The notes under the pieces were generated by a model that had not been told where the DNA came from, made no database searches, and was given only the letters and a program-made list of their open reading frames with translations. Below, piece after piece: positions 1 to 9,121 of a stretch of 9,121 nt of DNA. The translations under genes and the position numbers were made by a program. The first letter of the stretch is position 1; each line of letters starts with the position of its first letter. Origin of the DNA: a virus (lineage: Duplodnaviria; Heunggongvirae; Uroviricota; Caudoviricetes); IMG/VR virus record IMGVR_UViG_2645727991_000010, positions 1 to 9,121 of that record. One strand, 5' to 3'.

Positions 1-3000
1 CACTATGGGTATGCGCCCCGGTGTTATTCGTGGATTTAGTGCCGTAATCAAACGACGATGTGGTTTTCGTCCCCAAATCCGTACTGGATGCGCTGGCGCT
101 GTGGGTATGCGATTTAATGCCGTCCTGTTCCTGAGACAATACGGCCCGACCACTGGCAGGTTTGCCCTTAATCGTCCAGCCACGCATATCAGGGATCACG
201 CCTGACGGATAAGCGGCTGCAAGTTTCGGGTAAGCAGATTTGTCAAAAGTCTGCCCCTGCATCAGGGCATAACCAGACGGAACGGTATCTGATGGCCACG
301 GGATTGGTGCGCCGACTGGGTAGCTTTCTGGTGGAAGATTTTTCGAGGTATAAACTTCTGCCCAGTCTTCCTCAAAACCATAACCGTCTCTTGAAGAACG
401 GTAGAACAGACCACCATTTCTGTAATGCGCCTTCATCTGCAAGGTCCGGCAACTTCCGACTCCGGTATAGAAGTTAACCAGAATATAGCTGTCGCCAGAG
501 CGGGTGACATTGTAAGCACCTGATTCGGCATTCCAGGGAACGCCACCATCCGCATCGGCATATGTATCCGTTGCCCTTCTGGCAAAAGCAGCCACATGCG
601 CGGCGGTTAAAGTAATATCTCTGGAACCATCAAACTCAACACCAGAAACCCGTCTTGGCGTTTGCAGCTTTGTTGCTGTTAATGCATTACCGTTCAGACT
701 TGCGGACAGTTTGGTTCCAATAACCAGTTCGCCGGTTGCGTTATCAATAGCAAACGGTCTTAATGTATTCCAGCTACCATAAACATCACCTTGATTGGTA
801 AGCAGCAGGTAAGTTTTAGCGCCATCATTACGCCATAATGCCCCATACTCCCCACCTATCATTCGAATCTGATTACCACCACGCGCTACAATTTCGTCTG
901 TGGCAAAAAGTTTTTTGCACGACAAATTATCGTTAACGATTAACGAATGAGACTCATAAAAACCACGCCCACTCTTAAAATCAAGGATAACGTCCGCCGC
1001 GATACATTCAGTCGCTGGATTTGTTGCCCCAAACTTATAGGTCGTATCATTAACAACGAGATCAGCACCAGGTGCGGATATTGACAGGCCATCTTCGATA
1101 AACGCAAAAACAGGGAAAGCAGCGCCATCAACATAGAACACAGAGCGCAAATCATCGCCCTTATTACTCATCATTATTGAGTGGATGGCTCGTTCATTGT
1201 TTTGATATTGCCAGAACATTCCATAAGCATAACGCCCCCTGTCAGTCCAGCCACCAGGCATAACAAATCCGTTAAACTCGCAGTTATTCATCGGATCGCC
1301 TGCGGTTCGCGTTGCCGTGGTGATAATGACCCTTGATGCCAGTTCGCTTACTGAGCCAGCAGAACGCATAACAACAACAGGGTAATATTTTCCAGATGTT
1401 GCACCTGCAGGAGCGTTAACCCGCACATAACGCATACCACGCTTATCAGCAAAGTCTGTTTTACTGACCGCGTTAATGTTGTTCAGGAAGCGTCCCTTAT
1501 CGGGTATATCAGCGCCGTTCTGGTCTTTCTGCAGACGTTTCTCTGCATTGTCATAGGCTGATTTTACTGCCTTTGGCGTTGCCGCCAGCGTTTCAGACGT
1601 ACTGTTGGTCGCACTGCTGAGCTGTACTATCCCCTTTTTCGTCGTGCTCGCATCCTCAAGCGCCACGGCGGATGCAATATCCTCTGCCCGTTTTGCCGCT
1701 GTCTCGGCGCGCGTTGCCGCGGATTCCGCCGTACTTTTGCTCTGTGCTGCCGCCGTCGCACTGCCAGCTGCCTCTGTCGCCTTCGTGGATGCTGTCGTGG
1801 CGCTGCCCTTCGCTGCTGACGCCTGTCTGGTCGCCTCATCTTTTGAAGCAGACGCCGATGATGCCGATGACGCCGCCGAACTGGCTGACGATGCGGCAGC
1901 CGTTTTTGAGGATTCTGCGCTGGTTTCCGACGCTTTCGCGTTCGTTTCGGATGTCTTCGCTGCGGAAGCAGAACTCGCTGCTGCGCTGGCCTGTTCAGTG
2001 GCTTCGCCAGCCTTCGTTGTGGCTGTTGAAGCGGATGATGCGGCGCTTTCTGCCGATTTTCCGGCGGCGGTGGCACTGGCTGAGGCCTGCCCGGCACTTG
2101 TTGACGCGGCGCTGGCAGATGATGCAGCCGCTGTTTTTGAGCCTGCCGCAGCTGAGGCGCTCTGTCCCGCTGCCGTCTCAGAAGACTTAGCGTTCGTCTC
2201 GGACGTTTTTGCCGCCTTCGCGGAATTTCCTGCCGCCGTTGCCGAGGAAGTTGCGCTACTGGCGCTCGAGGATGCGTTCGTTTCTGATGATTTCGCTGCC
2301 TCTTTTGAGGCCGCCGCATCCCGGGCTGAGGTGGCAGCTTCTGACGCTTTCGTGGTCGCGGTGGATGCAGAAGTGGCTGCTGATTGTTGTGACGCTGCAG
2401 CATTCGTTTCTGACGTTTTCGCCGCACCGGCACTGGTAGCCGCCGCGCTTTTTGAGGACTCTGCAGCGGCAGCACTTTTTGAGGCTTCAGTGGCCTTTGT
2501 TGATGCCGTTCCTGCGCTGGAAGACGCTGACTGAGCCGACGACGCGGCCTGTCCGGCTGACGTGCTGGCTGCACGTGCTGAATCTGCAGCATCAGTCGCA
2601 CGGGTTGCCGCCTCACTGGCAGATGTGCTGGCATCACTGGCTGACTTCTTCGCGGCTGCCGTGTTCTGTGCCACCACGGACGCGTTACGCGCCACCTCTT
2701 CCACCATCAGTTCAAAACGACGCAGTGCCTCCGGACGGGCATCATCCTCCGTCATGGCACCGAGAAAATCATTCAGCGTACCGGGTTGAGAATCTTCATA
2801 CACGGTGATGGTCCCGGCATGTGACGGCGGGAATCCCTCCACCAACAGAATAACGCTGTACTGACCGTACTCAACGTCCATGCTGTAACGCCCGGCTTCA
2901 TCCGGATTTTCTGAGGCCAGCGTGTTCACCACCACAGTGGTACTGTTACGTTTTGCTTTCAGCTGGATTGTGCAGTTCTGTACCGGTTTTCCTGTGCCGT

Positions 3001-3031
3001 CTTTCAGTACACCTGAAATCTTTACTGCCAT
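1..3031 (-). CDS. stf: Side tail fibre protein (lambda Stf / Rac StfR-like), 3'-truncated by the window edge; ATG at 3029-3031, open frame through position 2 (at least 1010 codons)
   Basis: Not in the ORF track because there is no in-frame stop inside the window; the absence of any listed minus-strand ORF in this frame implies it is open throughout. My translation from 3031 gives [26 protein letters not shown]..., which I recognise as the lambdoid side-tail-fibre N-terminal domain. I translated the last 360 nt codon by codon: ...[104 protein letters not shown], matching the distal lambda Stf region as I recall it. Upstream in-frame stop at 3071-3073. Preceded by GGGG/GGTG 5-8 nt upstream of the ATG. 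Confidence 0.88.
1650..2700 (-). repeat. Degenerate in-frame Ala/Ser/Thr-rich repeat tract encoding the fibre shaft of Stf; recurring peptide unit ~AKTSETNA / SKSAAA
   Basis: Recurring nucleotide motif on the plus strand, gcgttcgtttc(g/t)ga(c/t)g, at about 1936-1955, 2190-2210, 2276-2290 and 2400-2420. Very high GC (about 67% in 1741-1800). Spawns long spurious ORFs in all other frames (1605-2534 +, 1627-2637 -, 1672-2190 +, 2452-2808 +). Confidence 0.6.
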
Positions 3032-3040
3032 ATTCACCCC

Positions 3041-3069
3041 ACAAAAAAGCCCGCCTGAACCGGCGGGCT
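3041..3069 (-). terminator. Rho-independent terminator downstream of lom (minus-strand transcript)
   Basis: Stem 3048-3055 (agcccgcc) pairs with 3062-3069 (ggcgggct), loop 3056-3061. On the minus strand the stem is followed by UUUUU (plus-strand A-run 3043-3047). Sits 27 nt after the lom stop and about 10 nt before the stf ATG. Confidence 0.7.
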
Positions 3070-3095
3070 GTCATAACACTGTGTTACCTGGCTAA

Positions 3096-7220: not shown

Positions 7221-7868
7221 TCAGCGACCAATCACCACAACCTGACCACCATCACCTTCATCTGCTGTGCTGATCTCCTGAGATACCACCCGCGACCCCA
7301 CACGCATTTCACCGTACAGAACCGGCAGAGCATTACCCTGGGCAACCATATTATCCAGTGAAGAAAAATAGGTGTTCTGTTTGCCGTTATCTGTTGTCTG
7401 TGTGCGGGGAGTTCTGGCTTTCGGTGCCAGCATCTGCGCCACACCGCCCAGAATCATACTGGCCCCTGCCGCATACATACCCGATACAGCCGCGGCACCC
7501 AGCCAGCCCACAGGGTTCCACCATGCCACCGCAATCAGCGCCGCCCCCAGCACAGCCTGAAACACACCGCCACTTTTGGCTCCTGCCAGACGCGGCACGA
7601 TATGGATCACAGCACCATTTGCCAGCGGTTCATTAAGACGGGCTGATAATTCCGTTTCACCTGTATCACGCCCGGCAATGCGTACCTGATACCAGCCGTC
7701 GCTCAGCTTCTGACGAAACGCCGGGATCTGCATGGCCAGCGCCCGGATGGCTTCGGCCCCCGTTTTCACACGAAGGTCGATGCGGCGGCCAAATCGTTGC
7801 AAATCCCCGTAAAGGCAGATGCGTGCCATGCCCGGTGACGCCAGAGGGAGTGTGTGCGTCGCTGCCAT
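7221..7868 (-). CDS. I: Tail tip assembly protein I, 215 aa
   Basis: ORF-track protein MAATHTLPLASPGMARICLYGDLQRFGRRIDLRVKTGAEAIRALA… and C-terminus …VVSQEISTADEGDGGQVVVIGR recognised as lambda gpI. ATG at 7866-7868 with purine-rich RBS (gagagagg) upstream. Its 5' end overlaps the 3' end of K out of frame, as in lambda. Confidence 0.95.
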   Translation of the reverse strand: MAATHTLPLASPGMARICLYGDLQRFGRRIDLRVKTGAEAIRALAMQIPAFRQKLSDGWYQVRIAGRDTGETELSARLNEPLANGAVIHIVPRLAGAKSGGVFQAVLGAALIAVAWWNPVGWLGAAAVSGMYAAGASMILGGVAQMLAPKARTPRTQTTDNGKQNTYFSSLDNMVAQGNALPVLYGEMRVGSRVVSQEISTADEGDGGQVVVIGR

Positions 7869-8509
7869 TTGTCGGTATACCTCTCTCGTTTACTCAGTTG
7901 TTCAGGAATATGGTGCAGCAGCTCGCCATCACCACAGTAAATGGCGGCATGATTCGGCACCGATGAACCAAAACAGCACAGCAGCACATCGCCCGGTTGT
8001 GCTGATGACAACGGCACCTGATACAGCCCTGTGGCCTCCAGATTATCCAGATAGAGATTCTGACCGTGACGCCACCAGTCATCCTCGCGATGAAAATCCG
8101 GCATCTCAATCCCCGCCAGATGATAAGCATCCCGGAACAGCGTGTAACAGTCCGTCACCCCGTGCTCAAAGCGCCGTCCGGTGAGATGCGGCACACAGCG
8201 GAACTTATGAATCGCCCCCCGGCAGACCAGCCACCACGGCAAATCACTCTGCACCTGCAGCCGCCGGTCAGTCTCACTCAGCCAGGGCAGACCACCGGGG
8301 TGGCTGTGGACCAGCGCCACAATCTCACCCTGCATTTCTGCCTGCAGCCAGTCCTCCGGCGACATACGGAAATACGCCTCCGGCTCACCGGAGATATTCA
8401 CGCAGGGAAAATAGCTTTCCCCCTCCGGCGTTCTCACCACGAAGCCGCACGACTCCGCTGGCGCACATCGCCGGGCGTGCGCCAGAATCGCTGATTCTGT
8501 CTCTGTCAT
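7766..8509 (-). CDS. K: Tail tip assembly protein K: N-terminal JAMM/MPN metalloprotease-like domain plus C-terminal NlpC/P60-like domain; 247 aa from the ATG at 8507-8509
   Basis: Recognised as lambda gpK (MTETESAILAHARRCAPAESCGFVV…). JAMM motif H-x-H-x7-S-x2-D is present (HSHPGGLPWLSETD, nt 8267-8308) with the upstream E-x-C-G motif (AESCGF, Glu codon 8453-8455). Cys/His candidates for an NlpC/P60 fold (…VTDCYTLF…, …NHAAIY…). The track's start at 8551 is a TTG lying inside L; the ATG at 8509 sits 4 nt after the L stop. Alternative internal Met at 8365 would give 199 aa. Confidence 0.88.
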   Translation of the reverse strand: MTETESAILAHARRCAPAESCGFVVRTPEGESYFPCVNISGEPEAYFRMSPEDWLQAEMQGEIVALVHSHPGGLPWLSETDRRLQVQSDLPWWLVCRGAIHKFRCVPHLTGRRFEHGVTDCYTLFRDAYHLAGIEMPDFHREDDWWRHGQNLYLDNLEATGLYQVPLSSAQPGDVLLCCFGSSVPNHAAIYCGDGELLHHIPEQLSKRERYTDKWQRRTHSLWRHRAWHASAFTGICNDLAAASTFV

Positions 8510-8513
8510 GGGA

Positions 8514-9121
8514 TTACTGCGAAAGTTTGTTAATGGAAAGGAAACCGCCAAAGTTGCCGACGTTATTGCGGAACTTACAGCCGCTCAGGCATTTGCTGCA
8601 TTTATCCTTCGTTATATCGGACGTCGGCTGGTCATATTCATCCGCGACAGCCGGACCGTTATAACCGCACTCATCACCGCGATAGGTCCAGGTGCAGGTG
8701 TTGGCCAGCATGGTACGTCCCGGAAAAACAGCGCCATCCGTTTCCGTCGGCGTGGCCAGTACAAAAGAGGCACTGACTGCGCTCAGTTCGCTGCACTGCT
8801 CGATGCGCCAGCGGCTGATCACCTCCTGCTCCGGATCGGCGTTGCTGTTTCCGCTGACGAAGTTCACCGCATCCAGAAAACGGGCGTAAACCTTACGCCG
8901 GACCACCGTTCCGCCGACCAGACTCTGCATATCTTCCGCCATCCCGGTGACCATACCGTACAGGTTAGAAACCGTCAGCGTGGGGCGCGTACTGGTGCCT
9001 TTGCCATTCAGTTCAAAACCGCCCCCCTGAATGGGATACGGCTGATACTGTCGCCCCTGCCAGGTGACCGGCTCACCTTTTTCGTTCTGCTCATTACAGA
9101 AAAAATAACGTTCTCCACCGA
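8514..9121 (-). CDS. L: Tail tip assembly protein L, 5'-truncated by the window edge (C-terminal ~200 codons present)
   Basis: The track lists only 8514-8954 from an internal Met. Translating upstream in the same frame to the window edge gives …GGERYFFCNEQNEKGEPVTWQGRQYQPYPIQGGGFELNGKGTSTRPTLTVSNLYGMVTGMAEDMQSLVGG… with no stop, continuous with the listed ORF. C-terminus …CSKCLSGCKFRNNVGNFGGFLSINKLSQ (Cys cluster) recognised as lambda gpL. Confidence 0.92.
   Translation of the reverse strand, partial: GGERYFFCNEQNEKGEPVTWQGRQYQPYPIQGGGFELNGKGTSTRPTLTVSNLYGMVTGMAEDMQSLVGGTVVRRKVYARFLDAVNFVSGNSNADPEQEVISRWRIEQCSELSAVSASFVLATPTETDGAVFPGRTMLANTCTWTYRGDECGYNGPAVADEYDQPTSDITKDKCSKCLSGCKFRNNVGNFGGFLSINKLSQ

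Follow-up and report, generated by a model that had tools for sequence, protein, structure and literature searches.

Gene K of this lambda-like phage very probably starts at the ATG at position 8509 of the window (the whole 9,121-nucleotide stretch of DNA analysed in this study) and encodes a 247-residue product carrying two peptidase domains. The full coding sequence occupies 7766..8509 on the minus strand, where a 744-nucleotide open frame, confirmed here, extends from ATG (8509-8507) to TGA (7768-7766) and specifies a protein of 247 amino acids (28.2 kDa). This start had been proposed in a preliminary description of the same DNA, all of whose coordinates proved right when checked on the minus strand, and the 247-residue form is supported by homologue alignment, Pfam, a PDB profile search and AlphaFold. 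The same 744-nucleotide K is annotated by PGAP and in phage 21 and PhiR63_2.

The start codon of K (8507..8509, minus strand) adjoins the end of gene L. The 3' part of L, which encodes minor tail protein L, occupies 8514..9121 on the minus strand (Pfam Phage_tail_L, E = 8e-99); gene L continues beyond the window edge. Its TAA stop codon (8516-8514) is followed by TCCC (8513-8510) and then by the ATG of K, which places the start 4 nucleotides past the L stop, as originally described. This junction, in the form TAA(A)TCCCATG or TGAATCCCATG, is present in 74 of 80 close relatives, and an intact 247-residue open reading frame from the aligned ATG is found at all 80 of these loci. At 48 of 50 divergent loci, the distance of the K start from the L stop is between -8 and +12 nucleotides. 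There is no Shine-Dalgarno sequence at ATG 8509, where the best anti-SD duplex has a predicted energy of +0.7 kcal/mol, and therefore restart at this codon by ribosomes that have just terminated on L is the most likely route of initiation. Translational coupling of K to L, as judged from the position of the start, is plausible because the K start adjoins the L stop across the family.

Conservation extends upstream of Met49, the internal methionine (ATG at 8363..8365, minus strand, codon 49) from which the classical 199-residue annotation begins. Alignments with 96 of 97 full-length representatives (34-60% identity) begin at query residue 19 or earlier, and the median alignment start is query residue 6 versus residue 8 of the homologues themselves. 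The preliminary description had named an absence of conservation upstream of the methionine in MSPEDW as the outcome that would count against the long form; the opposite was found, with conservation reaching residue 3-10 in 96 of the 97 distant homologues. Residue conservation was scored in 40 homologues at 33-58% identity, in which P17, E19, C21, G22, N38 and F47, all upstream of Met49, are invariant or almost invariant. There is no such conservation of Met49 itself, and most distant homologues carry I, V or L at that position. Across the 80 close loci, codons 1-48 have 7, 3 and 21 variable sites at codon positions 1, 2 and 3, respectively (p = 9e-5), and thus vary mainly at third positions, like the rest of K.

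The N-terminal portion of K (residues 4-98; 8216..8500, minus strand) matches Prok-JAB (PF14464), a JAB/MPN (JAMM) metalloprotease domain. Against the Pfam gathering threshold of 25 bits for this family, the 247-residue form scores 53.6 bits (E = 2.5e-14) over profile positions 4-103 of 114; the 199-residue form scores 23.9 bits, below the cutoff, and keeps only profile positions 63-103. The JAMM motif, defined as E-x(n)-H-S/T-H-x7-S-x2-D (PMC300881), is present in perfect form (E19, H68, H70, S78 and D81). Its conserved zinc-binding part, HSHPGGLPWLSETD (H-x-H-x7-S-x2-D), is encoded at 8267..8308 on the minus strand, with HSHP at 8308-8297 and SETD at 8278-8267. The general-base glutamate, Glu19, lies within AESCGF (codon 8453..8455, minus strand) and is paired in alignments with the E-x-C-G of two solved JAMM proteins, 2kks and 2kcq. 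Among the 40 homologues, H68, S69, H70 and D81 are invariant, and Glu19 and S78 are each at least 90% conserved. The earlier argument that the JAMM signature needs the upstream glutamate, and that a start at the internal methionine at 8365 would lose it, is borne out by these results, with Met49 downstream of Glu19 and the short form failing the Pfam search.

Structural comparisons also include the segment upstream of Met49. In a PDB profile search, K residues 2-102 align with whole solved JAMM domains, and the matches to 2kks, 2kcq and 5lda begin at profile position 2-16. In the AlphaFold model of K (pLDDT 96.3, pTM 0.90), residues 1-48 belong to the core of the MPN fold and form a helix (3-15) and two strands (21-27 and 30-36) with pLDDT values of 97-98. 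Foldseek matches this domain to PfJAMM1 (5ld9; rmsd 2.6 A) and also to AMSH, CSN5 and Rpn11, with a probability of 1.00. The N-terminal domain is a motif-complete, predicted JAMM/MPN+ zinc isopeptidase.

The C-terminal portion of K (residues 111-224; 7838..8179, minus strand) matches the NlpC/P60 (C40) family of papain-like peptidases (PF00877 NLPC_P60; 49.2 bits, cutoff 23, E = 5.5e-13) over the entire profile, positions 1-105 of 105. Its predicted catalytic residues, encoded on the minus strand, are Cys121 (8149-8147), His187 (7951-7949) and His199 (7915-7913), of which the cysteine is at least 90% conserved and the two histidines are invariant in the 40 homologues. Foldseek matches for the papain-like fold include 9ubf, 8xup (MepS), 7v6u and 8i2e (LytE), with TMt values of 0.55-0.68, and the Foldseek and PDB matches of this domain comprise MepS/Spr, LytE and Acd33800. 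On the strength of its motif and modelled fold, the C-terminal domain is a predicted NlpC/P60 cysteine peptidase. The JAMM motif and the two Pfam matches go well beyond what chance would produce. The two-domain organization suggested by the preliminary description therefore stands on Pfam, the PDB profile search, AlphaFold and Foldseek; its wording of K as a tail-tip protein does not hold in the sense of a structural protein, as K is an assembly factor. The JAB plus NlpC/P60 architecture was published in 2006 (Iyer, Burroughs and Aravind; PMC1779556).

Lambda K is annotated as 199 amino acids in NC_001416 (14276..14875), as the preliminary description had stated, and this length stems from one G missing in the 1982 reference sequence rather than from biology. 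J02459 and NC_001416 lack a G at 14266/14267. OM418625, EU078592, KT232076, PV340536 and LC730321 all have this G, as does every independently sequenced lambda stock examined. The same G is present in lambda-gt10, listed as '14266 C>CG' for MutaMouse (PMC6760142, Table 5); a 137/138 G deletion appears in the same variant lists. A 26-mer without the G has 0 matches in viral and genome collections, versus at least 120 for the version containing it. The deletion breaks the K frame such that a TGA falls eight codons before the annotated lambda methionine. The short lambda K does not reflect a poor choice of start, because the deletion in the reference closes the frame upstream. Loss of the G puts the N-terminal 46 codons in another frame, so that translation can first begin at Met49; from there the short K spread both by annotation transfer and by the independent choice of gene callers. 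Such callers arrive at the short form on their own because they favour the internal GGAGG, which probably draws them to Met49; the long K frame is open on contigs where a 199-residue K was called. A true K frameshift in the lambda strain sequenced in 1982 was also considered. This is unlikely because K is essential, because the G is present in all of the independently sequenced derivatives of the same stocks that were examined, and because no other sequence in the collections searched has the G-less 26-mer. For lambda K, programmed frameshifting was rejected on the same grounds.

The internal GGAGG (8377..8381, minus strand) lies within P-E-A codons, 10-11 nucleotides upstream of ATG 8365, forms an anti-SD duplex of -9.5 kcal/mol, and is annotated as a ribosome_binding_site in OM418625. 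It could mean that K yields two products, namely the 247-residue protein from ATG 8509 and a 199-residue, NlpC/P60-only protein of 22.9 kDa from ATG 8365, nested in frame in the manner of lambda C/Nu3 or S107/S105. Consistent with this, 78 of 80 close relatives retain the internal ATG and 76 of 80 the GGAGG, and NlpC/P60-only versions of phage K were noted by Iyer et al. (PMC1779556). If such a pair were made, the ratio of the 247- and 199-residue forms would tune two peptidase activities in tail-tip assembly. However, we consider this arrangement unlikely. The divergence of codon 49 among distant homologues argues that an internal start is no feature of the family, and two of the 80 close relatives have ATA or CTG at this codon, with the GGAGG broken in four. 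The GGAGG can be explained by coding alone, as the P-E-A codons are partly conserved, and its spacing exceeds the optimum of 5-9 nucleotides. Furthermore, the short form would retain an MPN fragment (residues 49-103) stripped of helix 1 and strands 1-2, which is unlikely to fold.

The same GGAGG would also serve the classical annotation, by which K is made only from ATG 8365 and the preceding 144 nucleotides are an untranslated spacer between L and K. Although the 199-residue form appears in RefSeq NC_001416, in J02459 and in the curated records OM418625 and EU078592, this reading is highly improbable: the supposed spacer varies at third codon positions, the conserved half of the JAMM domain with its catalytic glutamate is encoded there, and the short lambda annotation is explained by the one-base reference error. 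Two other in-frame starts have even poorer prospects and can be given almost no credence. The TTG at 8549..8551 (minus strand) comes first among the start codons of the frame and opens its longest open reading frame (261 amino acids), but it sits 38 nucleotides within L, has no Shine-Dalgarno sequence, and adds no extension that is conserved in homologues. These align from residue 1-10 and begin at the residue aligned to the methionine at 8509, in agreement with the initial view that this TTG is not the K start. GTG 8401 (codon 37; 211 amino acids) corresponds to the 636-nucleotide K annotated in KT232076, but this choice would delete Glu19, helix 1 and both N-terminal strands. ATG 8509 is therefore the start that we adopt for K.

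K belongs to a lambda-type tail cluster, in which it lies between L and I and upstream of J; its neighbours are Phage_tail_L, Lambda_tail_I, a 1132-amino-acid J and a 199-amino-acid Lom-like open reading frame. Gene I (7221..7868, minus strand) encodes a tail tip assembly protein whose N-terminal part is a ubiquitin-like domain (Pfam Lambda_tail_I, residues 14-97). The conserved I protein begins at Met14 (ATG 7829), and homology at divergent loci begins at residue 14-17. The C-terminal tail of K (codons 214-247) and the N-terminus of I are encoded in two frames of the same segment (7766..7868, minus strand), in which variable sites number 2, 9 and 3 at K codon positions 1, 2 and 3, K position 2 being I position 3. 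Two antisense open reading frames on the plus strand (7819-8184 and 8066-8494) lie opposite conserved coding sequence and probably arose by chance in GC-rich DNA.

In lambda, tail assembly requires K, and the virion does not contain it (PMC10721106, PMC12617516); gpK has been described as an assembly factor that is not detected by mass spectrometry of virions (PMC10721106). K of this phage would be a 247-residue assembly enzyme that has two peptidase domains and acts in the cytoplasm. As the tail tip is assembled, its JAMM domain most likely cuts the ubiquitin-like domain off the N-terminus of gpI. Processing of gpI by the K JAMM domain was predicted in 2006 and, according to a meeting summary of Davidson's 2025 talk, lambda gpK has been reported experimentally to cleave the ubiquitin-like gpI (PMC12908700). 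The NlpC/P60 domain was suggested to process gpI as well (Iyer et al., PMC1779556).

Comparison with known systems identifies K as an orthologue of lambda gpK (TAPK of Iyer et al. 2006), with 96% identity once the missing G is restored (PV340536), and K matches phrog_30 over residues 1-247 (E = 7.5e-163). The two phages share the L-K-I-J-lom gene order, the JAB plus NlpC/P60 architecture and the L-stop/ATG junction, which has one extra A in lambda. The proteins show few differences, such as T2-E3 in the window versus T2-Q3 in lambda and R26-T27 versus S26-T27. Whereas the lambda reference K is frameshifted and annotated as 199 amino acids, K in the window is an intact 744-nucleotide gene. The best structural match is to the archaeal JAMM1 desampylases (P. 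furiosus JAMM1, 5ld9/5lda; Haloferax HvJAMM1, NF041370), which are minimal MPN+ proteins of about 110-130 amino acids (for K, rmsd 2.6 A over 109 columns, profile E = 1e-10). Both have the E...HxH...S..D zinc site, and JAMM1 acts on ubiquitin-like beta-grasp proteins. However, identity is only 22-25%, and K is not a member of the NCBIfam desampylase family NF041370 (31 bits, cutoff 130). Unlike JAMM1, K has a fused second peptidase domain, and the substrate proposed for it, a ubiquitin-like domain, is fused in cis to the gpI N-terminus rather than being a C-terminal conjugate. K shares the papain-like fold and Cys-His-His triad with NlpC/P60 (C40) enzymes such as E. coli MepS/Spr but, unlike MepS/Spr, has neither a signal peptide nor a lipobox and is a cytoplasmic, non-virion protein; a cell-wall substrate is therefore unlikely. 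The F-type pyocin proteins PA0639 and PyoF8 are described as the counterparts of gpK in the tailocin cluster and are likewise absent from mature particles.

The long K is already used by modern annotation, with PGAP and recent phage records calling 744 nucleotides, and the finding is in that sense a known one. K in the window is an ordinary, intact orthologue that offers nothing new biologically. Its value lies in curation, since lambda K still has a length of 199 amino acids in RefSeq NC_001416 and J02459. Presumably the same length is given in UniProt P03729. The short call recurs in approximately 11,000 database sequences of the top clusters, and at least one recent structural-bioinformatics review analysed the truncated K, in which it recognized no domain but the peptidase at residues 52-182 (PMC7291167). 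The lambda K record is mended by inserting a single G at 14266/14267 and placing the start at 14133, so that K spans 14133..14876 in the corrected numbering. Any gpK that is cloned, modelled or mutated from the reference record lacks the catalytic glutamate as well as one third of the deubiquitinase-like domain, a domain now reported to drive ordered tail-tip assembly.

The minus strand of the window carries a lambda-type tail-tip gene cluster comprising the 3' part of L (Pfam Phage_tail_L, E = 8e-99), K, I (Pfam Lambda_tail_I), J (1132 aa), a Lom-like outer-membrane protein (199 aa), and a side-tail-fibre-like ORF (2–3070) that continues beyond the left window end. The DNA is 96–98% identical to that of many lambdoid phages and E. 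coli prophages and is distinct from that of lambda itself. The side-tail-fibre ORF runs for >1,000 codons without interruption up to the left window end, with its first in-frame ATG at ~3031, unlike the stf gene of laboratory lambda, which is split by a frameshift. Ala/Asp-rich and Arg/Pro-rich ORFs at 1605–2637 are alternative frames of this gene. Two plus-strand ORFs antisense to K (7819–8184 and 8066–8494, 121 and 142 aa) have probably arisen by chance in GC-rich coding sequence.

The preliminary description had placed the start of K at an ATG adjoining L, and all of its coordinates proved to be right when checked on the sequence. The L stop codon (TAA, 8516–8514) is followed by the four bases TCCC and then by ATG 8509, which opens a frame of 744 nt to TGA 7768–7766 (247 aa, 28.2 kDa). 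The codon for Glu19, in AESCGF, occupies 8455–8453, and positions 8308–8267 correspond to HSHPGGLPWLSETD. With Glu19 added, this segment completes a JAMM motif that matches E-x(n)-H-x-H-x7-S-x2-D perfectly. Initiation at codon 49 (ATG 8365) would yield a protein of 199 aa (22.9 kDa). The TTG at 8551 is, as had been proposed, an unlikely start, since it lies inside L and only opens the longest ORF.

Six concordant lines of evidence assign the stretch before Met49 to the K protein and place the K start at ATG 8509 rather than at the internal Met. The Pfam profile Prok-JAB aligns with residues 4–98 of the 247-aa form (profile positions 4–103 of 114; 53.6 bits against a cutoff of 25 bits), whereas the 199-aa form matches positions 63–103 only and falls under the cutoff, at 23.9 bits. 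A search of 1.84 billion representative proteins yielded 97 full-length hits (34–60% identity), and the alignment begins at or before query residue 19 in 96 of these (median start at query residue 6 versus residue 8 of the hit itself); the remaining hit starts near residue 47. In an alignment of 40 sequences (33–58% identity), G22 and N38 are invariant, P17, E19, C21 and F47 reach 90% conservation or more, and the position of Met49 is occupied by I, V or L in most homologues. Thus, conservation upstream of the MSPEDW Met, the check that had been suggested, favours the long form.

Structural comparisons yield the same result. Positions 2–102 of the K family profile match the entire solved JAMM domains 2kks, 2kcq and 5lda (E = 2e-12 to 1e-10), with the E-x-C-G segment included. 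An AlphaFold model of K (pLDDT 96.3, pTM 0.90) places a helix (3–15) and two strands (21–27 and 30–36) in residues 1–48 at pLDDT 97–98. In Foldseek comparisons, the N-terminal half superimposes on JAMM1 of P. furiosus (rmsd 2.6 Å), AMSH, CSN5 and Rpn11. The C-terminal half does so on MepS, LytE and Acd33800, which are NlpC/P60 enzymes. The 247-aa ORF is intact in every one of the 80 viral contigs compared from close relatives. Across the 74 unique sequences, codons 1–48 have 7/3/21 variable sites at codon positions 1/2/3 (binomial p = 9e-5), a pattern indistinguishable from that of codons 49–213 (31/10/75). These findings confirm the earlier observation and support its interpretation. In biological terms, the K gene of the window is intact and is an unremarkable lambda K orthologue.

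When translated from the equivalent ATG, the lambda reference sequence meets a stop codon. Alignment reveals that J02459/NC_001416 reads GGAGGC-TATTTCCGTATG where the window and all relatives read GGAGGCGTATTTCCGTATG. Because this G is missing (lambda position 14266/14267), the N-terminal segment of the reference (MTQTESAILAHARRCAPAESCGF...) sits in a different frame. An in-frame TGA precedes the annotated Met by eight codons, and therefore Met49 was the first start available in 1982. Each of the lambda stocks examined that had been sequenced independently contains the G, namely lambda imm21 (OM418625), DE3 (EU078592), lambda from K-12 CV601 (KT232076), PV340536 and lambda_AGU (LC730321). The constitutional differences of the lambda-gt10 transgene include '14266 C>CG', listed in the MutaMouse variant table beside a second indel, 137 AG>A (lambda position 137/138) (PMC6760142 Table 5). 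A 26-mer lacking the G has zero matches in 2.9 million viral contigs and 185,579 species-representative genomes, versus at least 120 matches for the G-containing 26-mer.

The deletion recurs in just two further phage records, both identical to the reference over the compared stretch. These are OR974322.1 and OR474059.1, recent 'lambda' entries, one of which is described as a chicken cloacal swab isolate. Because the G-less state has no other occurrence in the collections searched, these records suggest reference-guided assembly or copying rather than independent sequence. The missing G is most simply read as a sequencing error made in the 1982 lambda reference.

The 199-aa call was then propagated by annotation transfer. 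Although the G is present in OM418625 and EU078592, their K genes are still annotated as 199 aa, one with an explicit RBS feature, and the K call in KT232076 is 211 aa. Gene callers also choose the short form independently. Four clusters of exactly 199-aa K, with ~11,000 member sequences, are among the top matches listed, and in the two of these that were checked the contig shows an uninterrupted long frame from the same ATG adjoining the L stop. These clusters are start-choice artefacts, probably driven by an internal GGAGG, which lies 10–11 nt upstream of ATG 8365 (-9.5 kcal/mol); a Shine-Dalgarno sequence is lacking at ATG 8509 (best anti-SD duplex +0.7 kcal/mol). A minor product initiated at ATG 8365 might be made from this signal beside long K, but we consider this unlikely. 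Neither element is universal among close relatives: ATA or CTG replaces the ATG in 2 of 80, and 4 of 80 have a broken GGAGG.

The start of long K adjoins the L stop in most of the relatives compared. The junction reads TAA(A)TCCCATG or TGAATCCCATG in 74 of 80 close loci, and in 48 of 50 divergent loci K starts -8 to +12 nt from the L stop, usually with one candidate start only upstream of the Glu. This arrangement is a family feature, and it is consistent with a putative termination-reinitiation coupling of K to L, as had been suggested.

The start of I, the gene downstream, is also inconsistently annotated, in a mirror image of the K problem. Candidate minus-strand starts are ATG 7868, ATG 7829 and GTG 7769, with a K/I overlap of 7766–7868. 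PGAP and pharokka-style records begin I at the GTG overlapping the K stop (190 aa in relatives, 182 aa here), which strips the first two strands from the ubiquitin-like domain of I. The start of the I domain precedes the K stop in 64 of 65 divergent loci, usually by 55–61 nt, and it often lies just 1–4 codons past the opening of the I frame. Because of these domain starts, and because Lambda_tail_I aligns from residue 14 ('MARICLYG'), the conserved start is ATG 7829 (Met14), or possibly ATG 7868 as in the lambda RefSeq. Across 74 close relatives, the variable sites in the 103-nt overlap number 2/9/3 for positions 1/2/3 of the K codons. The second K position coincides with the third of I, which puts the constraint on the I frame. 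The K residue is altered by 12 of 13 variable codons, and the C-terminal tail, absent from about a third of distant homologues in the 40-sequence alignment, tolerates amino-acid change.

The GenBank protein AAA96551 is presumably the 199-aa form, in which case it is without the motif glutamate. Lambda K was recognised as carrying the JAMM motif in a 2003 paper that lists it under that accession (PMC300881). The JAB plus NlpC/P60 architecture was published in 2006, together with a predicted cleavage by K of the ubiquitin-like domain at the N-terminus of I (PMC1779556). Tail assembly needs gpK, which is absent from virions (PMC10721106, PMC12617516), and a 2020 review analysed the 199-aa protein and described the peptidase domain only (PMC7291167). 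Current pipelines already annotate the long form, with a 744-nt K called in PV340536, phage 21, PhiR63_2 and PGAP-annotated E. coli prophages, and therefore this finding is already known. Our incomplete coverage of the literature found no publication tying the 14266 G to the K start. What is added here is that the discrepancy between 199 and 247 aa is most simply traced to a single wrongly missing base in the lambda reference rather than to a poorly chosen start.
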